From Mesorhizobium sp. (GTDB lineage Bacteria > Pseudomonadota > Alphaproteobacteria > Rhizobiales > Rhizobiaceae), in NCBI GenBank assembly GCA_051860465.1, contig JBHYDY010000008.1, positions 35,876-99,875 on the forward strand: 64,000 nucleotides of DNA, written 5' to 3'. The notes below the pieces were generated by a model. It ran no database searches. It had not been told where the DNA came from and was given only the letters and a program-made list of their open reading frames with translations. Made by a program: the position numbers and the translations under genes. Shown piece after piece: positions 20,979-45,699 of the stretch (position 1 is the stretch's first letter; every line of letters starts with the position of its first letter).

Positions 20979-21938
20979 TTAGAAGTGTAGTTCATCCGAA
21001 TAGGAAAGAGGCGCCCTCAGGTTCGTGAAATCGAAGGTCCTGGCGCCCGAACGGTCTTCTTCCTGAAGCGAACCGCCGAAGGACATGCGCAGACCGACCT
21101 TGAAGGTGTGGGCCCACACCTCTTCCTGGACCAGACCCGTGGTTACCTCAACGTAATCGCCCTGATAACCAACAAAGCCGGAAATCGGCGACGCTCCGAT
21201 TTGCTGCTCGTAGTTCACGGCCAGTTGCAGCCAGTCGAGGTCGCCGCGTTCGTCGGGATCGGTCGTGAACTGAGCATGGTCGGAGATGCCATAGGCGACC
21301 GAACCCTCGAGCCGCGAACCGGGGGCAAAGAAGTAGCGCGCGCCCAGCCGTCCGAACCACAGGTCGTCGACATAGTCGTCGCCCGCGAGGCGACCCGCAT
21401 AGCCAAGCTGGCCGAAGAGGGTCGCGTTGCCGATGAAGTACGCCGCCTCGCCGCCGCCGAAGCCATGGACGCTGCGCTCTTCATCGTCGATGTGCGAGGT
21501 CACCGAGGCGCCGACGAAAGCACCCAGGGCCAGGTCTCCGCTGCGATAGATGTAGTGGCCGCCAAGCGCGGCGTGAAGGGTTCCCTCATCCGGCCTCGTT
21601 TCGTCGTCACGGAGGTTTCCATGGTAGTCGATCAGGTTTTCGAACTGAAGCGCATGGCCATTGCCGAAGCTGTAGTGAGCCCGCGCGTCGGACCCCATCC
21701 CCCATGCATCACCGCAGAACATGCCATCGCCACATGAGGCCGAAAAATCATCATCTTCAAAGACGCCAGAACGCCCCCATCCGCTCGGCGACACGTACTG
21801 GCCCCAGATGGCGACGTTGCCGGAGAACCGCTCGGCGACCGGTTCCGCCATGATCGCATCGGCGGCAAAAGCCGGCGTCGCCGATACAAGGGCAGCGGCA
21901 GCGGCGGCGCCCAGCAATCCAATCGACAATCTCTTCAC
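20979..21938 (-). CDS. Outer-membrane beta-barrel (porin-like) protein
   Basis: Signal peptide MKRLSIGLLGAAAAAALVSATPAFA, alternating aromatic/Gly-rich strands, C-terminal ...DELHF with terminal Phe. Confidence 0.65.
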   Translation of the reverse strand: MKRLSIGLLGAAAAAALVSATPAFAADAIMAEPVAERFSGNVAIWGQYVSPSGWGRSGVFEDDDFSASCGDGMFCGDAWGMGSDARAHYSFGNGHALQFENLIDYHGNLRDDETRPDEGTLHAALGGHYIYRSGDLALGAFVGASVTSHIDDEERSVHGFGGGEAAYFIGNATLFGQLGYAGRLAGDDYVDDLWFGRLGARYFFAPGSRLEGSVAYGISDHAQFTTDPDERGDLDWLQLAVNYEQQIGASPISGFVGYQGDYVEVTTGLVQEEVWAHTFKVGLRMSFGGSLQEEDRSGARTFDFTNLRAPLSYSDELHF

Positions 21939-22237: not shown

Positions 22238-22314
22238 TGGCGCACCCGACAGGATTCGAACCTGTGACCTCTGCCTTCGGAGGGCAGCACTCTATCCAGC
22301 TGAGCTACGGGTGC
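22238..22314 (-). tRNA. tRNA-Arg (anticodon CCG)
   Basis: Reverse complement reads GCACCCGTAGCTCAGCTGGATAGAGTGCTGCCCTCCGAAGGCAGAGGTCACAGGTTCGAATCCTGTCGGGTGCGCCA. Anticodon loop CTCCGAA; encoded CCA. Confidence 0.95.
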
Positions 22315-22448: not shown

Positions 22449-23118
22449 GGATGACCGGGAAGCACGAAGCGCGGGCTTGCGGGCCTGTCCTTTCGGTGGC
22501 CGCACGCGCGGCCACCGCTCATTCGCCTGGCGCGGTGGTCGACCGAGGCGCGGCGTGCCCGGCACGCCGCGCGGCGGGGCGGTCGCCAAAGCCGAAGGCG
22601 AGGCGCAGCGGCCAGGGCAGGCGCTCGGCCGCCATGGCGATCGTGAGCGACAGCGCGGCCGTGACCAGAACCACCAGCCCGAACGTGGGCCAGGCGCCGG
22701 CCTCGATCGGCAGCACCAGGTAGAGCGCCCACACGATCACCGTCTGGTGGACGATGTAGAGGGCAAACACCTTGCCGTTCAGCCAGGAAAGCGCGGCGCT
22801 CCCTCGGTCGAGATGGACGGGGGCGAAGCCGACGGCCGTCAGGATCATCGTCCAGGCGAGTGCAAGGACCAGCGCCTTGAACGCCGGCGTCTGGTTCTCC
22901 CACGAACCGAGCGATCCGGCGGCGTCTGGCGCGGGCAGGAAGCAGGAGGCATAGAGCACAACCGTGAGACCGAGCACCAGCGCCGCGCTGACCCAGCGGC
23001 GCGCGACGATTGAGCCGATGATCTCGGCGTGATGGCGGGCAAACAGGAAGCCGAAGCCGAACCACGACGCCCACACCGCGAACCAGGCGCCGTCATTGTA
23101 GAGCGCATTGGTCTGGCG
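22449..23118. repeat. 670-bp direct repeat, left copy
   Basis: Collinear with 31700-32369 (offset 9251). I find 3 mismatches: 22491 g/c, 22969 a/g, 23019 t/c. Confidence 0.95.
22519..23118 (-). pseudogene. Orphan 3' fragment of acyltransferase-3 gene
   Basis: Encodes the last ~200 aa of the protein made by 31770-32984, with one I/V difference. There is no 5' half; homology stops abruptly at 23118. Confidence 0.9.
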
Positions 23119-23279
23119 CGGCTCTAGGGTCTGTCGAGATTCATCGCACGGCGCCGCGCCGAAGCCTCGTGCGGTGAACCTCGGCAGAGCCTAGCCCAAA
23201 TGGGCCATGACGCCATCCTGGCGACCCTGCATTGTGATTGTGCGCGCGCCTGTCGTGCTCACTCACTTGGGAGTCGACG

Positions 23280-23945
23280 ATGCATATTGAGATGGCGATG
23301 GCCAGGCGGACTCCATCTGGCGCCATGATTGCCGCGACAATCGGACTTGCCTGTCTGTGTCTCTCGTTTCTTTCGGCCACGTCGGCAGAGGCGACACCGA
23401 AGAACCTTCAGGGAAAGACGATACAATTCACCTACACGTCCTCGACTTCCGGCCTCTCGTGCGTGCACCGCTCCTCAATCCGCATCGCCAGGGATCAGCT
23501 CTTCTACGGCCACGAACTCATCAGTTGCGGTGAGGGCGCGGGTGAAAATCTGCCAAAGGGATATGGCTGGATCATCCCGGTCAACGGAACGGCGCCGGTC
23601 AAGAATGCCTGCAAGTCAAATTATGGCGACAGGGTGGAGCGCTGCACGGATGGCTATGTCCGCAAGCGCAATGGCAAAATGCGCGCCTCCGAAACCTGGA
23701 GCGGCTCCGTATCGAGCAAGGTCACCGAAAGCAAGATCCAGGTCCACATGCGCAGAAACACAGTCGGGAGGTGGTCCACGACGGACGGAGGTGGCGGCAC
23801 CTACAACGTGAACCAAGACTACAAGCTTGCGATATCCGTATCCGGCAAGGGCTGCCAGGTCACCGAATACCGGCTCCGAATTACCGGATCCACGACTGCC
23901 GCCCACAACTTCAGATCCTCACAGAAGTGCTCGATCTCGGGCTAG
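23280..23945 (+). CDS. Hypothetical secreted protein (weakly similar to 28120-28818)
   Basis: MHIEMAMARRTPSGAMIAATIGLACLCLSFLSATSAEA signal-like N-terminus. Beta-rich Ser/Thr/Gly composition, several Cys, ends ...QKCSISG. Confidence 0.55.
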   Translation: MHIEMAMARRTPSGAMIAATIGLACLCLSFLSATSAEATPKNLQGKTIQFTYTSSTSGLSCVHRSSIRIARDQLFYGHELISCGEGAGENLPKGYGWIIPVNGTAPVKNACKSNYGDRVERCTDGYVRKRNGKMRASETWSGSVSSKVTESKIQVHMRRNTVGRWSTTDGGGGTYNVNQDYKLAISVSGKGCQVTEYRLRITGSTTAAHNFRSSQKCSISG

Positions 23946-24177: not shown

Positions 24178-25776
24178 ATGCCGATAACCGTTGCCCTGCC
24201 GGACGTGAAAATCAGAAACATCGTCTGGATGATGATGGTCGCGACGTTCCTTCTGTGGCCGACTCTCGGTCATGCGCGGTTTCAAGTCCTCGAGCCGAAA
24301 CAGGGCACGGGCGACACCAAGCGCATGGCCCTGGTCATCGGCAACGCAGCCTACCGCTCGGTCACCGCTCTCAAGAACACCACCAACGACGCCGGCGCGG
24401 TGGCGGACTCCGCGCGCGATCTCGGGTACCGTGTATTCCTCGCACTGGATCTCGATCGAAGCGGCATGAACCGCGTGATAAGTGAGTTCCTTCGGACCAT
24501 CGATTCGAACACGGAGGTCCTATTCTACTATGCCGGGCACGGCGTGGAGTTGCAGGGCTCGAACTATCTCTTCCCCATCGACGTCCCCCTTCTTTCATCC
24601 GAGCAGGACCGTCTCCTGCGCAGCGAGGCGATAAGCCTTTCGGACCTCTTGCAGGACTTCGAGTTGCGTTCCGCACGGGTGACGCTGGTCATCCTGGATG
24701 CCTGCAGGGACAACCCGTTCGCCGGTCCGGGCAAGCGGTCGCTCGGCAATACGCGTGGTCTTGGCCGCGTCGATCCGCCGAGCGGAACATTCGTCATCTA
24801 TGCCGCCGGCGCTGGCGAGGCCGCGCTCGACTCGCTTGGCGCCAAGGATACTGACCGGAACGGGCTGTTTACCCGCAGCCTCCTCAAGCACATGAATCGT
24901 GAAGGCCTCGAATTGCGATCCATGGTGCGCGAACTGCGGCAGGAGGTGCGGCAGGCCGCATTGACCGGTGCGGGGCACTCGCAAACGCCCAGCTATTACG
25001 ATCAACTGCTGGGCGATTTCTATTTTCGGCCGCGATCCATGGAGCCGCCGGCGACGTTGGCCTGCGCGGCATTGGTCAGTCCGAACGCATCGCGCTCCGA
25101 CATCCTCTTCAACGACTATCCGAGCATCCTGCTCATCTGTGAACGCGAATTGCAGAGCCGCCCCGCGGACGCTCGGCTCGTCGCGCTCGTCGGCTTGGCG
25201 CGTGAGCAGCGCGCCTTTCAGGCGGCCTTGACGAGCAATCATCCGGCACCCGCCGCGGAATACCTTCGAAAGTTCCCGTCCGGACGATACCTTGAGGGCG
25301 TTCGCCAGTACCTGGCAAGCCTCGATCCACGTCCGTCGCCCGGCCCCGAAATCAACCCGCCGCCACGTCCCGCTCCGACGCCGGTGGACGCCGTGGCACT
25401 CGCTCGCAGTCTTCAGGCGGAACTCAAGCGCGCCGGATGCTATGGCGGAACCGTCGACGGGGTGTGGGGAAACATGAGCCGCCGTGCGGTTTCGGAGTTC
25501 GCGCGCTTTGCCAGCCTCGAACTCCCAGGCGAGGAACCGTCCCAAACCCTGCTGGACATGATCCAGCCTTTCGGCGACCGCGTGTGTCCGCTGACCTGCG
25601 ATGCGCGCCATGAAGCCAGGGGCGAGCAGTGCGTTCTCAAGATCTGCGGCGCGGGCCAGGTGCTATCGACGAAAGGCATCTGCGTACGGCGCCAGGCTGA
25701 ACGCAAGGTGGAGCGAAAGCCTGCCGGCGGCGGCGGCAATTGCTTCAATTTCAACGGAGTGCGGCATTGCGACTAG
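24178..25776 (+). CDS. Caspase-like (peptidase C14) protein with peptidoglycan-binding domain
   Basis: N-terminal hydrophobic anchor. His-Cys dyad in YYAGHGVE and VILDACRDNPF. PG_binding_1-like LQAELKRAGCYGGTVDGVWGNMSRRAV. Cys-rich tail ending CFNFNGVRHCD. Confidence 0.85.
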   Translation: MPITVALPDVKIRNIVWMMMVATFLLWPTLGHARFQVLEPKQGTGDTKRMALVIGNAAYRSVTALKNTTNDAGAVADSARDLGYRVFLALDLDRSGMNRVISEFLRTIDSNTEVLFYYAGHGVELQGSNYLFPIDVPLLSSEQDRLLRSEAISLSDLLQDFELRSARVTLVILDACRDNPFAGPGKRSLGNTRGLGRVDPPSGTFVIYAAGAGEAALDSLGAKDTDRNGLFTRSLLKHMNREGLELRSMVRELRQEVRQAALTGAGHSQTPSYYDQLLGDFYFRPRSMEPPATLACAALVSPNASRSDILFNDYPSILLICERELQSRPADARLVALVGLAREQRAFQAALTSNHPAPAAEYLRKFPSGRYLEGVRQYLASLDPRPSPGPEINPPPRPAPTPVDAVALARSLQAELKRAGCYGGTVDGVWGNMSRRAVSEFARFASLELPGEEPSQTLLDMIQPFGDRVCPLTCDARHEARGEQCVLKICGAGQVLSTKGICVRRQAERKVERKPAGGGGNCFNFNGVRHCD

Positions 25777-25781
25777 CCAGG

Positions 25782-27392
25782 GTGAAAGTCCGTCCCCGAA
25801 CGGCGACGGCGGATTCTCGAAATGCCTATCGTGGCGGGCTTTTTCTCGCCATGGCCGCGTCCCTGTTCCTTTCGGCTCCGCTTTCGGCACAAGAAGAGAT
25901 CGATCCCGGCGACGAACACATCTTCGCCAGCGGTGCCTTGCCCACGGACGAAAGATTGCTGCGGAGCTTCCCGTCCACTCCGACTTTCCGAGCGTTCCTG
26001 CCCGAGAAGGTCGACCTGTCTCGCCATTTCCCCGCCCCAGGCAATCAAGGCATTCAGGGTTCCTGCGTGGGCTGGGCGGTGGGTTATGCGGCGCGCGCCT
26101 ATTATTCGCAGACCGTCGAAAACAAGCCAGTCAGAAACCAGTCCAACATCCCAAGCCCCGCCTACATCTACAATTCGATCCTGGCGGATCCCACCGATTG
26201 CGATTCCGGATCTCGCATTCCCGTGGCCCTCGATCTGCTCCAGACCGGTGCGAGGTCGCTGAAGGATTTTCCGTACAACGACCGTCGATGCGCGGCGCCA
26301 TCCTCCCAAGCGAAAGCGAGCGCCACGGAGTTCAGGATTGCCGACTGGCGGTTTGTCGACAGCGCCCGGCTGGATCAGTTGAAGGGCGAACTGGCGCAAG
26401 GCAACCCGGTCATCATATCGATGCGGGTGCGCAAGAATTTTCATCGCCTGCGAGGCGCCAAAATCTACAAGGGCGACAATTCGCAAGAGAGCGGACATCA
26501 TGCCATGACCGTGACCGGCTACGACGAGCGCAAGCAGGCGTTCCGGCTGATCAACTCCTGGGGCAGGAAGTGGGGGGATGGCGGCTATGCATGGGTCTCC
26601 TACGATACCTTCGAGAAGGAGGTGCGCGAGGCGTACGTGATACGCGTCGACGCGCGTCCGCGGCCGGCGCCTATCGTGATCCCGGAGCCGGGTCCGGTTC
26701 CTGCCCCGACACCAAGGCCCGGACCGACGATCGTGGATCCCGGCGTCGTCATCAGCGGTCTCGAATGCGGCCGCGTTTCCATTGGGGTCCGCGACGGCCG
26801 GATTGTCGCGAGCGGCTTCGTCGGATCGACCGACGACATGGAAAAGCTGAACGCGCAACTCGCCGGCAAGTCGATCCTGAACCACGCGGAGTTGCGGCCC
26901 TGGCCTCAATGCGAGACCCTGCTGACGCTCGACGAGCAACTCTCGATGCCGCAGCGACCGGAAATCCTGTACCAGACCGAGGATGACGGACTGTCGGAGG
27001 GGAGCCTGCTCGTCTTCGACATCAAGACGCCCGCCTTCCAGAGCTACCTTCACCTTGCCTACGTCCAGGCGGACGGATCCGTCGTGCATCTGCGACAGTC
27101 CGATGCAACGACGTTGCGAACGCTTGCCCCCGGCACCCACATCAAGCTTGGCGATGGCAAGGCCGGTCCGAAGTTCCGGATCAGCGAACCGTTCGGCAAC
27201 GAGATGATGTTGGCGATTTCCTCGCGCAGCCCGCTCTTCCCGAGCCCCCGTCCCCAAATCGAAACGGAACGAGAGTTCCTCACGGCCTTGAGGCGCGCCA
27301 TCCTCGAGTCTCCGGACGGAGAAAGCCAGCGGCTGGTCAGCGCGTCCTATCGGGCATTCGTGACCAAGAAGGGAGAAGTCGAGCCGCAATGA
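25782..27392 (+). CDS. Papain-like (peptidase C1) cysteine protease fused to DUF4384-like C-terminal domain
   Basis: Signal peptide LFLAMAASLFLSAPLSAQ. Q-C-H-N set: NQGIQGSCVGWA, GHHAMTVTGY, INSWGRKWGDGGY. Pro-rich linker, then LLVFDIKTP...YVQADGSVVHL...FRISEPFGNEMMLAISSRSPLF. Start uncertain (GTG 25782 or TTG 25740). Confidence 0.8.
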   Translation: MKVRPRTATADSRNAYRGGLFLAMAASLFLSAPLSAQEEIDPGDEHIFASGALPTDERLLRSFPSTPTFRAFLPEKVDLSRHFPAPGNQGIQGSCVGWAVGYAARAYYSQTVENKPVRNQSNIPSPAYIYNSILADPTDCDSGSRIPVALDLLQTGARSLKDFPYNDRRCAAPSSQAKASATEFRIADWRFVDSARLDQLKGELAQGNPVIISMRVRKNFHRLRGAKIYKGDNSQESGHHAMTVTGYDERKQAFRLINSWGRKWGDGGYAWVSYDTFEKEVREAYVIRVDARPRPAPIVIPEPGPVPAPTPRPGPTIVDPGVVISGLECGRVSIGVRDGRIVASGFVGSTDDMEKLNAQLAGKSILNHAELRPWPQCETLLTLDEQLSMPQRPEILYQTEDDGLSEGSLLVFDIKTPAFQSYLHLAYVQADGSVVHLRQSDATTLRTLAPGTHIKLGDGKAGPKFRISEPFGNEMMLAISSRSPLFPSPRPQIETEREFLTALRRAILESPDGESQRLVSASYRAFVTKKGEVEPQ

Positions 27393-27904
27393 GGTATCTT
27401 ATCAGCGCCATATCCGCGATCTCGATCGCGACGCTAGCGTGCGGCGACGCCCACGGTCAGGACCGGTCCGCCGAAGACATCGTACGCGCCTTGTTGCCGC
27501 ATGGCGCCCAGACGCGGTCGCTTCGCGGCGTGACCGTTGAGCCCGGCCAGGAGGAGATGTCCCCGAGCATCGATCTGCAAGTCAATTTCGCGTACGATTC
27601 GGCCGAGCTCGCCAACGAGGCGCTGATCACGTTGAAGGCGCTTGGCGTGGCGCTGCAGGACGAGCGGCTGAAGGGATCCAATTTCGTCATCGTCGGCCAC
27701 ACGGACGCGAAGGGATCGGACGCCTACAACCTCGCTCTTTCGGAAAAGCGGGCGCTCGCCGTCCGCAACCACCTCGCCTTCTATTACGGCATCGAACTCT
27801 CCCGGCTGGCGTCGATCGGCCAGGGCGAAAGCCAACTGGCCTTTCCGGACGATCCCGAAAATGACCTCAACCGGAGAGTCGAAATCCGCAACGTCAAACC
27901 CTAG
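27389..27904 (+). CDS. OmpA/MotB-family peptidoglycan-binding protein
   Basis: Signal peptide, then NFAYDSAEL...FVIVGHTDAKGSDAYNLALSEKRALAV...NRRVEIRN. The ATG overlaps the upstream TGA (ATGA). Confidence 0.88.
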   Translation: MRYLISAISAISIATLACGDAHGQDRSAEDIVRALLPHGAQTRSLRGVTVEPGQEEMSPSIDLQVNFAYDSAELANEALITLKALGVALQDERLKGSNFVIVGHTDAKGSDAYNLALSEKRALAVRNHLAFYYGIELSRLASIGQGESQLAFPDDPENDLNRRVEIRNVKP

Positions 27905-28119: not shown

Positions 28120-28818
28120 TTAATTTGAGACGATCCTGCAGGCCGTGCTCACCGGTATGTCGGTTCGCAGCTTGTATTTGGCATCCCTGCTTCTATGCTT
28201 GACCGAGACGTCCTGTACCGTACAGGAGGAGCCGTTAACGACGATCGAAAAATTGTAAGTGCCGATATAACCGTTTGACCTGAAGTCATTCGTGTATGTG
28301 ACCGCGGCGCCCCTTGAGTTGGGACGAACGCGCAAACTATAGGTATCCCCCTTTCCTCCCTTTATATTTCTCGTCATCTCGACGCCATTCTTGCCGAAAA
28401 TCTCACCGCTGCCAGATTTTCCGCCCTTGACTTCGTCATACAGGAAAAGCTTTCCAGACTTGTCGGCGTATATGTTCACGCTGACAGGTATCGCCGCGAT
28501 GCCGCTGCACACCGACCCTCTGCACCACCGGAAGCCCGTGACAATGCCGGAGCGTACTCGTTTCCCTCGAAGCTCCGCGATCGAGGACGCTTCCGCGAAC
28601 TCCACGAACGGTGCAAGCGAGATCGGGACAAGAAGCGCGACCACCGCCGATCGGCGTGCAACGTCCCGGAATGATTGGGCAATGCGTGTGTTGAAGGCCT
28701 TGATCACGTCCACGACTCCGTTTCGACCATTGTCCGGCATCGATCTTCGAGACCCGGCGGCTGAGCCGGGGGAAGATTGCCATGCTCCCAACTGATCACC
28801 CGAACGGCATCGGGTCAT
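28120..28818 (-). CDS. Hypothetical secreted protein (weakly similar to 23280-23945)
   Basis: Internal hydrophobic signal/anchor RRSAVVALLVPISLAPFVEFAEA, Gly/Lys/Ser-rich beta-type sequence, ends ...STACRIVSN. Start uncertain (ATG 28818, ATG 28740 or a GTG further in). Confidence 0.5.
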   Translation of the reverse strand: MTRCRSGDQLGAWQSSPGSAAGSRRSMPDNGRNGVVDVIKAFNTRIAQSFRDVARRSAVVALLVPISLAPFVEFAEASSIAELRGKRVRSGIVTGFRWCRGSVCSGIAAIPVSVNIYADKSGKLFLYDEVKGGKSGSGEIFGKNGVEMTRNIKGGKGDTYSLRVRPNSRGAAVTYTNDFRSNGYIGTYNFSIVVNGSSCTVQDVSVKHRSRDAKYKLRTDIPVSTACRIVSN

Positions 28819-28925: not shown

Positions 28926-30161
28926 TTGCGCTCGTGGTCCTTAGAGGTTAACCTGCTTCCGGAAGCGCGCGGTCGAGCCGCGCGAACGGTGACGGAGGCT
29001 ATTGCTTTGAGCCAGATTTCCTTGAAGCAGTACAATGCCATACTGGAAACCATCTACAGCGCTCCGATAAACGAGGACTGGCAGTCGGTCCTCGAGATAT
29101 TGTCCACTTCGATGGGCCATATTCACACACACATGTTCGGGCACGACATCGACCTGAACAGGCAACTGTCGCTCTCCGGCAGCATGTACGACCCCGCCAT
29201 GCTCGACACCTACAACGCCTATTACCACGAGAGGAATGCCTGGATTCCCGGCGTTGCCCGCTCCGAAGTCGGCAAGGCGAGATACAGCGAAACCTACTGC
29301 CCAACGGCGGAATTGATTAAGACGGAGTTCTTCAACGACTGGCTACGCCCGCAGGAGGAGATCGGCGGCGGCGGCGGCATCGTCCTGTTCAATGACGGCG
29401 ACCGCTTCATCATCGTCGGTGGGAACATCCGGTTCAAGGACCGGGACGAGAAGGAGAGGCAATGGATCGAACTGCTCGATCTGCTGGCACCCCATTTCCG
29501 CAGGGCGTTCGGCGCCTATCGTGCCCTGTCGGAGGCAAAGCTCGTGGGTCAGGGATACCGCGAGGCGCTGGACCATGTGGGTTATGCGGTCATCCTCCTC
29601 GACCGGGACGGTAGCGTAAGTCATCAGAACGCGCAGGCCGACAGGCTGTCGAGGCCGGGAACGCTGTTCCATCTCGATGGGTCCCGCAGGCTTCGCGCGT
29701 TCGACACACGTGCGAGTGAGACGATCCGCCAAACGCTGGCCGCCATGCGATCTGGCCTGCTGACGGAACTGCCCGATGTCTTCACGATCCGGGAGAAGGA
29801 CAGCGGAACGCCCCATCTTTCGATGCTTCTGCCTTTCCCGGTCAATGGCGAGGTCGAGGGCGCCGGCATGGCGAAAGCAGTTTTCGGCGAGACGACACCC
29901 ATCGCCATGCTGATCGTGAAGGATCCGTCGAAAGCCGGTCGTCCGGCCAAGCAGGTCCTGGCGTCGCTCTACGGATTGACGCCGGCGGAAGCGGCGGTCG
30001 CGGTTGCCCTCGCCGAAGGACAGTCACTGAAGACCTACGCGGACACGCAGTCCGTAACCGTCCACACGGTGCGCAACCAGCTCAAGGCGATCTTCGGCAA
30101 GACGGGGACCAGCCGACAGGCCGACCTGGTTGCACTGCTCGGGCGCCTGAGTCCACGTTGA
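28926..30161 (+). CDS. LuxR-family transcriptional regulator with uncharacterised N-terminal domain
   Basis: C-terminal HTH LTPAEAAVAVALAEGQSLKTYADTQSVTVHTVRNQLKAIFGKTGTSRQADLV. The likely true start is TTG 29007, 8 nt after GGAGG. Confidence 0.8.
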   Translation: MRSWSLEVNLLPEARGRAARTVTEAIALSQISLKQYNAILETIYSAPINEDWQSVLEILSTSMGHIHTHMFGHDIDLNRQLSLSGSMYDPAMLDTYNAYYHERNAWIPGVARSEVGKARYSETYCPTAELIKTEFFNDWLRPQEEIGGGGGIVLFNDGDRFIIVGGNIRFKDRDEKERQWIELLDLLAPHFRRAFGAYRALSEAKLVGQGYREALDHVGYAVILLDRDGSVSHQNAQADRLSRPGTLFHLDGSRRLRAFDTRASETIRQTLAAMRSGLLTELPDVFTIREKDSGTPHLSMLLPFPVNGEVEGAGMAKAVFGETTPIAMLIVKDPSKAGRPAKQVLASLYGLTPAEAAVAVALAEGQSLKTYADTQSVTVHTVRNQLKAIFGKTGTSRQADLVALLGRLSPR

Positions 30162-30350: not shown

Positions 30351-31689
30351 GGTCGTGTGCGTCAAGTTCTGCAAATTGGGCGGCCACGGCTCTGGTCATG
30401 CGGCTTTTCGGAGTTCGAGCTTCTTGTGCTCTCTGAGGTCGTCCATGTTGAGGTAACGGTTGGCCTCCATCCAGTTTTCGTTGGTTTCGACCGCGAGCGC
30501 GCGCACGAGGCGCAGGCAGCTCTCGGTGTTGGGGAAGATGCGCACGACGTAGGTTCGGCGCCGGATCTCCTCGTTGAGACGCTCGAGCATGTTGGTGGAC
30601 TTCAGGTGCTTGTGGTGCTGTCGTGGCAGCCGGAAGAAGGTGAGCGTCTGCTCGATGGTCTCCTCCGCCCAGCCCGTCAGGCGCGGATACTTGCCTGACC
30701 ACTTGGCGAGCCAGGTGGCGAGATCGGCCTTGGCCTCGGCGAGATCGCGTCGATCGTAAAGCCAGCGCAGTTCCTGCAGGCAGTCGTCGCCATGCTTCCT
30801 GGGCAGGTGGTCGAGCGCGTTCCTGAGGAAGTGCAAGTAGCAGCGCTGCCAGGCAGCTTCTGGGATGACCTCGCCGATTGCCGCGACGAGGCCGGCATGG
30901 TCGTCGGACACGACCAGTTCGACGCCCTTGAGGCCACGCGCCTTCAGGCCGACGAGAAAGTCCCGCCAGGCCGAGCGGCTCTCGCGATTGGCCATTTCGA
31001 CGCCCAGGATCTGGCGCCGCCCGTCCCAGTCGATGCCGACCGCGATCAGCACCGCCTGGCTCATCACCACGCCTCCCTCGCGCACCTTCTCGTAGCGCGC
31101 GTCGAGGATGAGATAGGGAAAGGGCTCCTGAAGCGGGCGCCTGGCAAAGGCGGCGAGGCTCTCGTCCAGCCGCTTGTTGATGGCAGAGATCGACGAGGCC
31201 GAGAAGGCGTGGCCGCACAGTTCCTCGGTGATCGCCTTGACCTTGCGGGTCGAGACGCCCTGCACATACATCTCCGCCAGCGTCGCCACCAAGGCCCGCT
31301 CCGAACGCTGGTAGCGCTCGAACAGCTCGGTCGAGAAGCGGCCCTGCCGGTCCTGCGGCACCTTGAGCTCGAGCTTGCCGACACGCGTCACCAGCGTGCG
31401 GCCGTAATGGCCCGAACGGTAGCCGAGCCGCTCCGGCGTGCGTTCGCTCTTCGAGGCAGCGAGCGCCTCGTCCATCTCGGCTTCCAGAACCTCCTGCATC
31501 ACGGCGCGGATCACATCGCGCAGCCCATCGGGGTTCGAAAGCAGAATGTCTTTTACGGCGGCGCTGGCGGTCTTACCTTCGGTCTTGGTCATGGTGGCGC
31601 TCCTTCGCGGGAATCAGGTGACGTTGAACATCACCAGCCTGCCATGACCGCCCCTCTCGGCGAATTTGCAGAACTCTCCGCACACTACC
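30351..31689 (-). mobile_element. IS256-family insertion sequence (~1.34 kb)
   Basis: Imperfect terminal IRs: ggtcgtgtgcgtcaagttctgcaaatt (left) versus the reverse complement of the right end, ggtagtgtgcggagagttctgcaaatt. A single transposase ORF fills the element. Confidence 0.8.
30396..31592 (-). CDS. IS256-family transposase
   Basis: 398 aa with a mutator-type pattern: YLILDARYEKVREGG...WQRCYLHFLRNALDHLPRK...LERLNEEIRRRT. Confidence 0.92.
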   Translation of the reverse strand: MTKTEGKTASAAVKDILLSNPDGLRDVIRAVMQEVLEAEMDEALAASKSERTPERLGYRSGHYGRTLVTRVGKLELKVPQDRQGRFSTELFERYQRSERALVATLAEMYVQGVSTRKVKAITEELCGHAFSASSISAINKRLDESLAAFARRPLQEPFPYLILDARYEKVREGGVVMSQAVLIAVGIDWDGRRQILGVEMANRESRSAWRDFLVGLKARGLKGVELVVSDDHAGLVAAIGEVIPEAAWQRCYLHFLRNALDHLPRKHGDDCLQELRWLYDRRDLAEAKADLATWLAKWSGKYPRLTGWAEETIEQTLTFFRLPRQHHKHLKSTNMLERLNEEIRRRTYVVRIFPNTESCLRLVRALAVETNENWMEANRYLNMDDLREHKKLELRKAA

Positions 31690-31699
31690 AGGCGGTGCA

Positions 31700-32369
31700 G
31701 GATGACCGGGAAGCACGAAGCGCGGGCTTGCCGGCCTGTCCTTTCGGTGGCCGCACGCGCGGCCACCGCTCATTCGCCTGGCGCGGTGGTCGACCGAGGC
31801 GCGGCGTGCCCGGCACGCCGCGCGGCGGGGCGGTCGCCAAAGCCGAAGGCGAGGCGCAGCGGCCAGGGCAGGCGCTCGGCCGCCATGGCGATCGTGAGCG
31901 ACAGCGCGGCCGTGACCAGAACCACCAGCCCGAACGTGGGCCAGGCGCCGGCCTCGATCGGCAGCACCAGGTAGAGCGCCCACACGATCACCGTCTGGTG
32001 GACGATGTAGAGGGCAAACACCTTGCCGTTCAGCCAGGAAAGCGCGGCGCTCCCTCGGTCGAGATGGACGGGGGCGAAGCCGACGGCCGTCAGGATCATC
32101 GTCCAGGCGAGTGCAAGGACCAGCGCCTTGAACGCCGGCGTCTGGTTCTCCCACGAACCGAGCGATCCGGCGGCGTCTGGCGCGGGCAGGAAGCAGGAGG
32201 CATAGAGCACAACCGTGAGGCCGAGCACCAGCGCCGCGCTGACCCAGCGGCGCGCGACGATTGAGCCGACGATCTCGGCGTGATGGCGGGCAAACAGGAA
32301 GCCGAAGCCGAACCACGACGCCCACACCGCGAACCAGGCGCCGTCATTGTAGAGCGCATTGGTCTGGCG
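31700..32369. repeat. 670-bp direct repeat, right copy (part of the intact gene)
   Basis: See 22449-23118. It starts 10 nt after the IS256 right end and covers 70 nt of 3' flank plus the last 600 nt of the acyltransferase CDS. Confidence 0.95.
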
Positions 32370-32984
32370 GGGGAAGAACGGCGACAGGGCCAGGTTGAGC
32401 GCCAGCGGCACGAGAAAGAGCAGGTGCACGAAGGGCGAGCGCATGAAAACCGCGAAGGCCTTGGACATCGGCTCCCCGCGCGCGGACTTCAGGAAATGGA
32501 AGATCGGGAACAGCCCGACGGCCATGACCAGCAGGTAGGCCACGAACCACATATGCGCCCAGGTGATGTTGCCCGAGGGATACTTGCCTTCGGTGAAGTA
32601 GCGTTCGATCCAGAAGGTGAACAGCGAGCCCTGGTAGCCCTCTTCCATCACGCGCTCGAGCCAGACCTGCGGCACCACCACGACCGCCATGGCGAACAGG
32701 AGCGGCACGAGCAGGCGCAGGGTGCGGTCGCGCAGGAAGGCAAGGCCGGGCGCTGAGCGGAACGCGAACCAGGTGCCCATGCCCGAGACGAAGAAGAGCA
32801 GCGCCAGCCGCCAGGCGCGCGGGAAGTCCATGGCCCAGGACAGGGCCTGGCTGGTCTGCGCGCTCTTCACCAGCCAGGACATGTCCGGAAAGAAGGCGAC
32901 CGAGCAGTGGTAGAAGATCAGCAGGCCGAAGGCGAGAACCCGCAGCCAGTCGACGTAGTGGAGCCTGCCTGTCGTCACGATCAT
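31770..32984 (-). CDS. Acyltransferase family 3 membrane protein (OpgC/O-acyltransferase-like)
   Basis: 404 aa, about 10 TM segments. N-terminus RLHYVDWLRVLAFGLLIFYHCSVAF is typical of the acyltransferase_3 family. Confidence 0.85.
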   Translation of the reverse strand: MIVTTGRLHYVDWLRVLAFGLLIFYHCSVAFFPDMSWLVKSAQTSQALSWAMDFPRAWRLALLFFVSGMGTWFAFRSAPGLAFLRDRTLRLLVPLLFAMAVVVVPQVWLERVMEEGYQGSLFTFWIERYFTEGKYPSGNITWAHMWFVAYLLVMAVGLFPIFHFLKSARGEPMSKAFAVFMRSPFVHLLFLVPLALNLALSPFFPRQTNALYNDGAWFAVWASWFGFGFLFARHHAEIVGSIVARRWVSAALVLGLTVVLYASCFLPAPDAAGSLGSWENQTPAFKALVLALAWTMILTAVGFAPVHLDRGSAALSWLNGKVFALYIVHQTVIVWALYLVLPIEAGAWPTFGLVVLVTAALSLTIAMAAERLPWPLRLAFGFGDRPAARRAGHAAPRSTTAPGE

Positions 32985-43773: not shown

Positions 43774-45699
43774 ATGTTCGGCAAACGATCAATCACGTTC
43801 AAGCTTGTGCTGGCCGCGCTCGGCGTCAGTCTTGCGGGTCTCGGTGCCTCCGTGGCCCTCATCGACCGGACGGCGAAGAGCAGCCTCCATGATCTCGCCA
43901 CCGATGCCTGGGTCATCCAGACCGGCCAGATCGCCACGGCGGCGGCTGGCGGCATCCGCTGGAAGAAGCCCGAGGTGGTCGCGGATGCCTGGGCGGCGTA
44001 CCAGACCAACGAGGACCGCATTCTTTCGCGCGCCATCGCCTTCGATCCGACTGGAAACGTCATCGCCGAGTTCGCCGCGCCCGGAGTTTCGGCCGCGGCG
44101 ATCGACACCTCGCTGCGGCGTCTGCTCGCCGCGCCGGGCGATGGCACGGCGGTCGAGGCGATCGACGGCAACGTGCTGATGGTGGCCCCATCCGGGACGA
44201 GTGCCGAGGGCAAGCCTCTCGGCTACGTCGCGTTGGCCTGGAACACCGGTCCGGTCGAAGCCGCGCGTTCCTCGCTCCGTATCGGGGCTTCGGGCGTCCA
44301 GGCGGTCTCGGCGCTGCTTCTCCTGGCGCTGCTGTTCCTCAGCATACGCTACGTGGTCGGCCGACCGCTCGGCGCGATCACCCAGCGCATCGAGAAGCTT
44401 TCCAACGGCGATCTCGAGTCGACCGTTCCAAACCTCGACCGCTCGGACGAGGTCGGCGTCATTGCCCGCTCTCTGGAAGGTTTCCGCAAGGCCTCGCTCG
44501 ACAAGCTCGAAGCCGATCGGGAACTCGACGCGCAGCGTCGCCAGATGGAGGAGCAACGCGACGAGAACGACGCCTCCCGCAGTTCGGCCGCCAAGCTTCA
44601 GGCGGCCGTCGTCAAGCTCATCGGCGCGGCGCTCGCACGTCTGGCCGATGGCGACCTGACGACGCGGCTCAAGGTCGACTTCCCGCCCGAGTACCGCAAG
44701 ATCAAGGACGATTTCAACACGGCCATGGATCGGCTGCAGGATGCCATGCAGCAGATCGTCGCCACAGGGCGCCAGCTTGAGCATGGCACCGACGAGATCC
44801 GCCGCGCGGCCGACGAACTCGCCCGTCGCAGCGAACAGCAGGCCGCAACCATCGAGGAGACGGTCGCCGCGGTCGGGGAAATCACTCGCTCGGTCTCCGC
44901 AACGGCCACCGGCGCGGGACAGGCCCGTGCGGCGGTTGTCGACATGACGACCGACACCGGCCACAGCGACAAGGTGGTGGGCGCCGCCATCTCGGCGATG
45001 GGCGGCATCGAGAAATCCTCCGAGGAGATTTCCAAGATCATCGGCGTCATCGACGAGATCGCGTTCCAGACCAACCTGCTGGCGCTCAATGCTGGCGTCG
45101 AGGCCGCGCGCGCCGGCGAAGCCGGCCGCGGCTTTGCCGTCGTGGCGCAGGAAGTGCGGGGACTGGCGCAGCGTTCGGCCGACGCCGCGCGCGAGATCAA
45201 GCAGCTCATCCAGACCTCCGCCGGGCAGGTGAAGACCGGCGCCAAGCTGGTCGGCGAGACCGGCGACGTCATCGGGCGAATCGCCGCGCGGGTCGAAAGC
45301 ATCAATTCCATCGTCACCGAGATCGCCCGGAGTGCCGAGGAACAGGCCGCGACCCTTCGCGGCATCAACTCGGCCATGAACGGCATCGACACCGCCACGC
45401 AGCAAGGCGCGGCGATGGCGCAGCAGTTCACCGCCACGAGCCGCGGCCTCGCCCGGGATGGCGAGGAGTTGAACCGGCTGATGGCGCATTTCCGCGGCGC
45501 GGAGAGCCATTCGAACGAACGACCCTCAGCGGCTCGCGCCGAACCTGCCCGTCAGGCGCCCGCTCTGGCGCCGGTCGCTTCGAACCGTCGACCAGAGCCC
45601 GCGAACACCTGGCGCGAACCGATGCGCGCCCGCGCCGCGACCCATGGCGCCAATGCGCTCGACATCGAGGCCGAGGCAGACGGCTGGGAAGAGTTCTGA
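43774..45699 (+). CDS. Methyl-accepting chemotaxis protein
   Basis: TM - periplasmic region - TM - HAMP, then the highly conserved [42 protein letters not shown]. Start is 43774 or 43738. Confidence 0.92.

Follow-up and report, generated by a model that had tools for sequence, protein, structure and literature searches.

Conserved gene linkage of a caspase homologue, a papain-like DUF4384 peptidase and an OmpA-like protein with predicted export signals

Introduction

Which proteins could a bacterial caspase homologue work with outside the cytoplasm, and to what end? Bacterial caspase homologues are abundant and many carry export signals, wall-binding or FGE domains, and almost none has a known substrate or role. 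The question is raised by a 64,000-nt stretch of Mesorhizobium sp. (assembly GCA_051860465.1, contig JBHYDY010000008.1, forward-strand positions 35,876-99,875; the whole stretch is called the window below), which contains three adjacent genes on one strand. The first, g1, encodes a caspase homologue, the second, g2, a papain-like (C1) peptidase that carries a DUF4384 domain, and the third, g3, a small OmpA-like protein. An earlier note on this DNA had grouped the three as an extracytoplasmic triad and offered a zymogen-style cascade, cell suicide or defence, or processing of the flanking secreted proteins as conceivable roles, all of which are treated as conjecture here as well.

Combining profile and homologue searches, structure prediction and a survey of gene neighbourhoods, we find that the three families are linked across bacterial classes and that both proteases retain their catalytic residues. 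The interpretation that we favour, at a probability of about 0.4, is that the triad is a mobile, exported and peptidoglycan-associated protease-effector module, in which a caspase homologue specific for Arg/Lys would activate a latent papain-like effector.

Results

Linkage of the three families

Clustering at 90% identity divides the C1-DUF4384 family into at least 621 groups, in nearly all of which C1 and DUF4384 are combined; the members of the family are mostly unnamed or labelled 'C1 family peptidase', and DUF4384 is precomputed in most homologues. We surveyed 80 loci, one genome per species, of which a profile of the family's C-terminal module matches 37, leaving 43 other C1 loci for comparison. 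Within 7 kb, a caspase-fold protease (C14 or CHAT) is encoded at 28 of the 37 C1-DUF4384 loci and at 4 of the 43 others (Fisher p = 7e-10), and an OmpA gene, usually directly downstream, at 23 of 37 against 3 of 43 (p = 1e-7). The true OmpA fraction is higher, since less than 1 kb of contig follows downstream in eight OmpA-negative loci (seven among the 37, plus the truncated locus L030). The earlier note's grouping thus recurs well beyond the window, the three families co-occurring in Alpha-, Beta- and Gammaproteobacteria and in other metagenome-assembled genomes (MAGs). The placement of the caspase gene varies: it may lie divergently upstream, upstream in the same direction as in the window, or after the OmpA gene, which argues for selection on linkage rather than inheritance of one arrangement.

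The strongest single item for grouping the three is a fusion of OmpA and caspase. In Pannonibacter phragmitetus DSM 14782 (locus L061, 6842-13599), the gene for a 602-aa C1+DUF4384 protein overlaps by 4 nt a gene whose 1650-aa product unites TPR and OmpA with a WD40 propeller and, at its C-terminus, a C14 domain, a fused form of the module that is also found at L066 and L067. The same three domain families occur in one predicted operon of Ruegeria sp. TM1040, where YP_612837 (peptidase C1A) is paired with YP_612838 (OmpA and Bac_PepC14, 1619 aa) in an operon table (Asplund-Samuelsson et al, 2012). This pair has the fused-gene form and matches L061, whereas the module in the window consists of three separate genes and its caspase homologue has no WD40 or TPR. 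That study counts OmpA in 14 metacaspase operons; the Ruegeria pair is a table entry only, and the triad is not described there as a system.

Could the three genes be independent exported proteins that share nothing except an insertion? The local segment is an insertion of mixed content, as described below, and would allow for this. However, the linkage is conserved across classes despite varying order and orientation, and the OmpA-caspase fusion lies beside a C1-DUF4384 gene; both already contradict mere neighbourhood, the likelihood of which we regard as practically negligible. That the three exported proteins are functionally linked is, in our judgement, very probable.

Within the module, the C1-DUF4384/OmpA pair is constant and the caspase partner varies, often occurring as two to three paralogues per locus and combining with PG_binding_1, FGE-sulfatase, MORN, TPR, PAN, SH3+WD40 or TPR-CHAT architectures. 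A first tblastn search with g1 as query appeared to leave many loci without a caspase, an impression that we discarded when Pfam, applied to the large neighbouring open reading frames (ORFs), identified divergent C14 or CHAT domains, among them giant SH3+WD40+C14 proteins and TPR-CHAT proteins. The TPR-CHAT ORF of L022 starts with a lipoprotein signal (lipobox LAGC).

The papain-like protein g2

The reading frame of g2 offers three candidate starts: TTG 25740, which would overlap g1 by 37 nt; GTG 25782, which lies 5 nt past the g1 stop and from which the g2 residues are numbered here; and ATG 25851, the choice of a public gene caller, which yields 513 aa. A normal signal peptide results from the two upstream starts only (hydropathy script), and in the closest relative (locus L081) the caspase gene and the g2 homologue share 10 nt. 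Tight coupling of g1 and g2 is therefore likely, the exact start of g2 being unproven. At the other junction the ATG of g3 overlaps the TGA of g2 as ATGA, as had been noted. A promoter and terminator scan gave signals no better than chance.

From the upstream starts, the predicted signal peptide has five K/R followed by the hydrophobic region GLFLAMAASLFL, with cleavage predicted between LSA and QEE (hydropathy script). The Peptidase_C1 match that follows is clear (E 5e-14; 53.5 bits against a gathering score of 20.7). The residues Q89, C95, H240 and N258 are invariant in 24 g2 homologues of 43-74% identity and align with those of xylellain from Xylella fastidiosa, which confirms the complete papain set read from the sequence before. 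In the AlphaFold2 model the predicted local distance difference test score (pLDDT) is 80.8 overall and exceeds 85 across the catalytic domain. Xylellain (3OIS) is the best fold match (Foldseek E 1e-18; template modelling score 0.79 on the target), with cathepsins at about E 1e-12, and it is also the best sequence match of the C1 domain including its N-terminal segment (phmmer E 5e-15). Identity between the two proteins is just 24-25%.

Some papain-fold enzymes, such as those of the NlpC/P60 type, are wall endopeptidases. A role in cell-wall remodelling, with the papain-fold enzyme hydrolysing peptidoglycan stem peptides or protein-peptidoglycan tethers and with OmpA and PG_binding_1 directing it to the sacculus, would accommodate the two peptidoglycan-binding domains of the module as well as the SH3_3, OmpA and PG_binding_1 domains of partner proteins. 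By sequence and fold, however, g2 belongs to family C1A with xylellain, the cathepsins and Der p 1, not to NlpC/P60, and caspase-fold partners with TPR or WD40 would have no obvious part to play; we consider wall remodelling very improbable.

No I29 propeptide is matched by Pfam in g2, in line with the earlier note; as in xylellain, a short N-terminal segment is found where the I29 propeptide would be. Residues 59-86 of g2 align with residues 41-66 of xylellain (phmmer), and the Foldseek alignment with 3OIS runs over 273 columns compared with the 268 residues of that structure. The N-terminus of xylellain reportedly blocks its own active site. By analogy, the corresponding segment of g2 may cover the active site and g2 may be made in a latent form. 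This segment bears the motif (F/Y)-R-x-(F/Y)-L-P, near-universal in the family, which includes Arg70; the arginine is invariant in the alignment of 24 homologues and is kept in all 40 of the commonest motif contexts listed, corresponding to 113 of the 120 top homologues. Xylellain has no such conserved arginine ahead of its mature domain.

Unlike xylellain, g2 continues beyond the peptidase into a Pro-rich linker, an alpha/beta domain and DUF4384, and its gene is linked to caspase and OmpA genes. The linker is predicted to be disordered (pLDDT below 50 at residues 292-319) and is variable in the alignment. The small alpha/beta domain contains the invariant Cys329, a WPQCE motif and Cys377; a Cys pair in this C-terminal region is conserved. 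DUF4384 (PF14326) spans residues 407-484 (31.7 bits against a cut-off of 27); the C-terminal half is modelled at a pLDDT of 89, with DUF4384 as a beta-sandwich. The Pro-rich linker and the DUF4384 terminus had both been recognised previously. A fold search of the C-terminal module in the PDB returned no significant match, the best (E 0.016) being generic Ig/MG-like sandwiches, and the fold of DUF4384 gave no functional lead.

The caspase homologue g1

In the g1 protein, 532 aa with a TAG stop at 25774-25776, the C14 domain is followed by a middle part that is helical, then by a PG_binding_1 segment and finally by a tail rich in Cys. Its Peptidase_C14 match covers the whole model (1-233 of 233; E 9e-33; 114.3 bits against a gathering score of 21.4). 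Among sequences with a solved structure, that of the MALT1 paracaspase is closest (E 2e-12); H121 (YYAGHG) and C176 (LDACRD) of g1 align with its catalytic His and Cys, and this dyad is kept in 31 of 32 aligned neighbouring caspase ORFs. In the DxCR motif of g1, Asp174, two residues ahead of Cys176, aligns with the corresponding Asp of MALT1, and all characterised C14 enzymes other than animal caspases cut after Arg/Lys (PMC5756287). From the two together, a P1 preference of g1 for basic residues can reasonably be inferred from the sequence. The best NCBIfam match, an EACC1-associated caspase type, reaches 53 bits, far under its cut-off of 140.

At the N-terminus, K11 and R13 precede the hydrophobic region IVWMMMVATFLL, followed by a predicted cleavage site between GHA and RF (hydropathy script). 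The hydrophobic segment that the earlier note called a membrane anchor is thus present, and its status as an anchor does not hold as stated, a cleavable signal peptide being equally possible. The intact His-Cys dyad, the PG_binding_1-like segment and the Cys-rich tail of that description all stand. PG_binding_1 scores 25.8 bits against a cut-off of 23 over model positions 6-44 of 57, and the tail has 7 Cys within residues 470-531, with a further one, C421, inside the PG_binding_1 segment; the tail is also present in the L081 orthologue.

The His-Cys dyad in Peptidase_C14 and the DxCR motif are shared with p20-only caspase homologues (orthocaspases and metacaspase-like proteins) and with MALT1, and variable C-terminal domains of p20-only homologues, FGE-sulfatase and PG-binding among them, were catalogued in 2012 (PMC3501461). 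What sets g1 apart from the known p20-only homologues is its predicted export and wall association, its Cys-rich tail and the tie of its gene to a C1-DUF4384/OmpA pair.

The OmpA-like protein g3 and export of the triad

The third protein has 171 aa, with a predicted signal peptide at residues 1-23 (hydropathy) and an OmpA domain (PF00691; E 1e-15; 58.1 bits against a cut-off of 27.2), which agrees with its earlier description as an exported protein of OmpA_C/MotB type. Its sequence GHTDAKGSDAYNLALSEKRALAV bears the canonical TD...N..LS..RA motif, from which peptidoglycan binding is predicted. The OmpA-like fold signature and this motif are common to Pal/OmpA-type anchors, including the peptidoglycan-binding domain of Zorya ZorB. 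In contrast to these, g3 has neither a beta-barrel nor a transmembrane segment of MotB type, and it shares no conserved lipobox with its closest relative. All NCBIfam equivalog scores are far under their cut-offs; g3 represents a separate small OmpA subfamily that accompanies C1-DUF4384.

Each of the three proteins has a single N-terminal hydrophobic segment with basic residues ahead of it and no further transmembrane-like stretch (hydropathy script). Together with the conserved Cys pair in the C-terminal region of g2 and the peptidoglycan-binding domains, this is consistent with the proposal that all three act outside the cytoplasm.

The insertion and neighbouring genes

The triad sits on an 8.6-kb insertion between 670-bp direct repeats that are 99.6% identical (Table 1). 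The unique part has a GC content of 0.608, the lowest among 7.2-kb segments of the 64 kb (mean 0.652, standard deviation 0.016), and the lower-GC, repeat-bracketed insertion noted previously is thereby substantiated. A tRNA-Arg(CCG) gene (22238-22314) lies 134 nt to its left, and a public assembly breaks exactly at the repeats. These are 670 bp of an acyltransferase gene and not short att-type sequences. No integrase was found among the insertion ORFs scanned, only the transposase of an IS256-family element. Since the repeats are long copies of the acyltransferase gene, we infer from the sequence that insertion would have occurred by homologous, Campbell-type recombination of a circle carrying a fragment of that gene, rather than by site-specific integration. 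The IS256-family element has 32-nt imperfect terminal inverted repeats (30351-30382 and 31658-31689) and ends 10 nt before the right repeat; its transposase shares a 90%-identity cluster with copies on chromosomes and plasmids of Rhizobium and Sinorhizobium. A search of a plasmid collection gave no full-length homologue. In the closest relative, L081, the three proteins (82%, 75% and 78% identity) are encoded in the same order in an unrelated chromosomal setting, and at L084 and L085 the neighbours of the module include transposase, integrase, McrBC and relaxase genes.

Two genes of the insertion seem to belong with the triad in this lineage. The first, upstream of g1, encodes a small secreted protein (23238-23945) in which six Cys are conserved and of which two paralogues precede the triad in L081. 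A search of 5.8 billion proteins gave only 3 close homologues, each encoded beside this triad, and 18 distant representatives in 1.84 billion include proteins with 7-17 tandem copies of the domain; the protein has no Pfam family. It is probably part of an extended module in this lineage, where its role might be that of substrate, inhibitor or cargo. The second, a LuxR-type helix-turn-helix protein (28926-30161) with an uncharacterised N-terminal region of 340 aa, may be a dedicated local regulator, because homologues of 27-28% identity adjoin the module in L081 and L009.

These neighbours bear on a further explanation, in which the triad serves an envelope function outside any conflict: the two proteases would act in parallel as a wall-anchored station at which specific exported proteins would be processed or turned over, for instance the small Cys-rich secreted proteins encoded nearby or proteins of the surface and matrix, with the LuxR-type regulator in control. 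The predicted export and peptidoglycan association of all parts would suit such a function, as would the rare secreted family and the regulator travelling with the triad in this lineage, the CsgG-like lipoprotein genes upstream in three gammaproteobacterial loci, and the position of many loci among ordinary metabolic and transport genes. However, no other locus has the small secreted proteins, which hence are not the general substrate, and the shuffling of caspase domains, the expansion of paralogues and the patchy, mobile distribution are more typical of conflict than of housekeeping. We regard this envelope function as rather unlikely.

A second orphan secreted protein is encoded just downstream of g3 (28120-28818, minus strand), in a gene whose GC content of 0.561 is the lowest in the region. 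It shares the short motif ..I.V.G..C.V with the 23238-23945 protein; hhalign, with E values of 0.05 and 0.02 across some 20 columns, does not support homology of the two.

Across the survey, neither ORF clustering nor a Pfam census of 137 neighbouring ORFs found a further recurrent partner, and DUF4407, CsgG-like and response-regulator genes occur sporadically only. Paired homologous ORFs flank the caspase gene at L010 (2363-3664 and 5595-7022) and at L019 (2467-3819 and 5774-6889); the ORF at L010 2363-3664 is a confirmed DUF4407 protein, one family with four members in the census. Three gammaproteobacterial loci (L026, L027 and L029) share a homologous ORF, some 200 aa in length, upstream of the caspase gene, and its copy at L027 matches CsgG. 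At L028 (5114-6566), the C1-DUF4384 homologue appears as three tblastn pieces in different frames and is probably a pseudogene or an error of MAG assembly.

Elsewhere in the window, Rfam found just the two tRNAs. ARAGORN reports a 90-nt tRNA-Ala(CGC) at 45564-45653 (minus strand); no tRNA passes the Rfam gathering score there, and the prediction is probably a false positive or a degenerate tRNA. Just left of tRNA-Arg, the gene at 20979-21938 (minus strand) encodes a 319-aa protein with a signal peptide, the ...DELHF end typical of outer-membrane beta-barrels and no Pfam match.

Table 1. Coordinates of the triad, its parts and the flanking features within the window.
Feature	Position	Strand	Basis
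g1, exported p20-type caspase homologue (DxCR type)	24178..25776	+	ORF list, Pfam, MALT1 similarity
g1 N-terminal signal peptide or signal anchor, aa 1-33 (predicted)	24178..24276	+	hydropathy script
g1 Peptidase_C14 domain, aa 48-282	24319..25023	+	Pfam, alignments
g1 catalytic codons His121; Cys176	24538-24540; 24703-24705	+	alignment
g1 PG_binding_1-like segment, aa 410-448	25405..25521	+	Pfam
g1 Cys-rich C-terminal tail	25585..25773	+	sequence count, L081 comparison
g2, exported C1A xylellain-like peptidase	25782..27392	+	ORF list, Pfam, alignment, AlphaFold2, Foldseek, phmmer
g2 short N-terminal segment, aa 38-75, candidate active-site-blocking pro-segment	25893..26006	+	xylellain alignment, Foldseek
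g2 papain-like catalytic domain, aa 76-290	26007..26651	+	Pfam, alignment, AlphaFold2, Foldseek, phmmer
g2 active-site codons Cys95; His240; Asn258 (also Gln89)	26064-26066; 26499-26501; 26553-26555	+	alignment
g2 Pro-rich linker, aa 291-323	26652..26750	+	AlphaFold2, alignment
g2 C-terminal module, alpha/beta domain then DUF4384 beta-sandwich	26751..27377	+	AlphaFold2, Pfam
g3, small exported OmpA-like peptidoglycan-binding protein (predicted)	27389..27904	+	ORF list, Pfam, NCBIfam, hydropathy
g3 OmpA domain, aa 67-161	27587-27871	+	Pfam
Left direct repeat, truncated 3' part of acyltransferase gene	22449..23118		repeat comparison
Small secreted protein, six conserved Cys, upstream of g1	23238..23945	+	L081 comparison, homologue searches
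LuxR-type helix-turn-helix protein	28926..30161	+	NCBIfam LuxR-family matches at aa 345-404
IS256-family (ISRm5-like) insertion sequence, right edge of insertion	30351..31689	-	Transposase_mut E 2e-159, cluster names
Right direct repeat, inside intact acyltransferase gene 31770-32984 (-)	31700..32369		repeat comparison, Pfam

Discussion

How might the three proteins work together? In the cascade that we favour, the variable non-catalytic region of g1, that is, the helical part, PG_binding_1 and the Cys-rich tail, would be the targeting or sensing element; g2 would be a latent peptidase of the xylellain type with its alpha/beta domain and DUF4384 as a docking or regulatory part; and g3, a periplasmic OmpA-like protein, would tie g2, and so the complex, to peptidoglycan. 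A local cue in the wall or periplasm would render the caspase homologue active, probably as an oligomer. It would then cleave g2, most plausibly after Arg70 ahead of the mature domain, and the released papain-like effector would degrade envelope or incoming proteins. The likely setting would be conflict with a phage, competitor or predator, or stress-induced autolysis. Indirectly, this cascade is favoured by the xylellain-like segment, the near-invariant Arg before the mature domain and the putative acidic S1 residue of the caspase homologue. The direction from caspase to papain-like protein is as tentative as the reading as a whole, and a role in conflict or defence, taken separately, is rather doubtful.

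The wiring could also run in reverse. In that case the C1-DUF4384 protein would regulate the caspases, either as a maturase or as a docking or inhibitory partner via DUF4384, and the part of effector would fall to the variable caspases. DUF4384 occurs repeatedly in fusion with proteases or next to them, and one constant C1-DUF4384/OmpA pair often serves two to three caspase paralogues, as would suit a shared regulator. Against this, the catalytic tetrad of g2 is invariant and it is g2 that looks like the latent partner, by analogy with xylellain; moreover, paracaspases become active on dimerisation and the orthocaspases of prokaryotes process themselves, so that neither needs a foreign protease (PMC5756287). 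Reverse wiring therefore seems quite improbable.

Several observations nonetheless weigh against the cascade from g1 to g2. Any interaction among the three proteins, or cleavage of one by another, is predicted from sequence comparison. C1 relatives that lack a caspase neighbour, for instance in Henriciella, also have an arginine at the same position, so that the conserved residue may be structural or an autoprocessing site, which weakens Arg70 as a caspase-specific site. Two Devosia loci (L013 and L016) have neither caspase nor OmpA within 7 kb and seven loci with ample downstream sequence have no OmpA gene; the C1-DUF4384 protein can therefore stand alone. Mantel correlations of divergence among the three proteins (r about 0.83-0.87) had no control gene, may reflect only species phylogeny and are not used as evidence. 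The insertion is specific to the Mesorhizobium genome of the window, and elsewhere the contexts vary, only some being mobile or defence-like: mobile-element families are not prominent among the 137 neighbours, and neither mobile nor defence genes dominate 21 loci. In a PADLOC census of neighbours, defence genes (mad3/mad8, PsyrT, type I restriction-modification, PtuB and Drt8) occur in single loci only, and an association with defence islands, considered as a further indication, was set aside as too weak, with few such genes among the 137 neighbours. On six local proteins, PADLOC and NCBIfam returned generic matches only, those of PADLOC being a generic caspase match and OmpA-domain matches to ZorB. 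Finally, to our knowledge the known protease-effector defence modules are all cytoplasmic, whereas the module in the window is predicted to be exported.

These known modules are the nearest parallel to the cascade. The sections of PMC12642450 drawn on here describe antiviral modules in which caspase-like proteases with FGE, PG-binding or WD40 sensors cleave latent effectors; a caspase-, trypsin- or subtilisin-like protease is combined with a latent gasdermin, Pepco, EACC1, MBL hydrolase or alpha/beta-hydrolase. As in the window, a caspase-fold protease stands beside a constant partner, and the sensors (FGE, PG-binding, WD40 or TPR) vary. The partner in the window, however, is a cysteine protease (C1A plus DUF4384) with an OmpA-like anchor, which is not among the effectors named in those sections of PMC12642450, and all components carry export signals, so that action in the periplasm is predicted.

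The SAVED-CHAT to PCaspase cascade of type III CRISPR provides a bacterial precedent for a protease that activates a second protease. Craspase, which pairs Cas7-11 with the TPR-CHAT protease Csx29, likewise parallels our proposal in that a caspase-fold protease cleaves a defined partner, in its case Csx30, and DUF4384 is the C-terminal domain of some Csx30 proteins, the substrates of the caspase-like Csx29. Unlike these type III CRISPR protease pathways, the module in the window has no CRISPR or cyclic-nucleotide component and would be extracytoplasmic, and its DUF4384 sits on a papain-like enzyme, whereas that of Craspase sits on a sigma-factor-binding protein. DUF4384 is also known on cyanobacterial orthocaspases; its co-occurrence with caspases, which the earlier note had pointed out, and its presence on different proteases are already in the literature.

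An unlikely and frankly speculative extension of the cascade would make the triad a periplasmic, peptidoglycan-anchored counterpart of cytoplasmic protease-effector immune modules, with DUF4384 as a general docking domain for caspase-fold proteases. A sensor-bearing caspase homologue would then respond to a cue in the wall or periplasm, such as phage entry, wall-damaging enzymes or the effectors of a competitor, and would activate the latent papain-like executioner, which its OmpA-like partner would hold at the sacculus. Such a docking function would account both for the occurrence of DUF4384 on Csx30 and for its fusion to proteases.

All three families are known and annotated in public records, and both the association of DUF4384 with proteases and operons of caspase and OmpA genes had been reported previously. 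Descriptions of the conserved three-part module and its fusion form were not found in the literature; nor did a literature search find a functional study of the triad, just as the earlier note had supposed.

In conclusion, the triad is best filed as an extracytoplasmic variant of protease-plus-partner systems, of an interest that is real but unproven. The module offers a defined and widely conserved partner set, consisting of a constant papain-like DUF4384 protein, an OmpA-like anchor and interchangeable caspase-fold proteases, and with three small genes it makes the role of exported bacterial caspases directly testable. If the cascade holds true, the logic of protease-activated effectors would extend from the cytoplasm to the cell envelope, and DUF4384 would gain a function.

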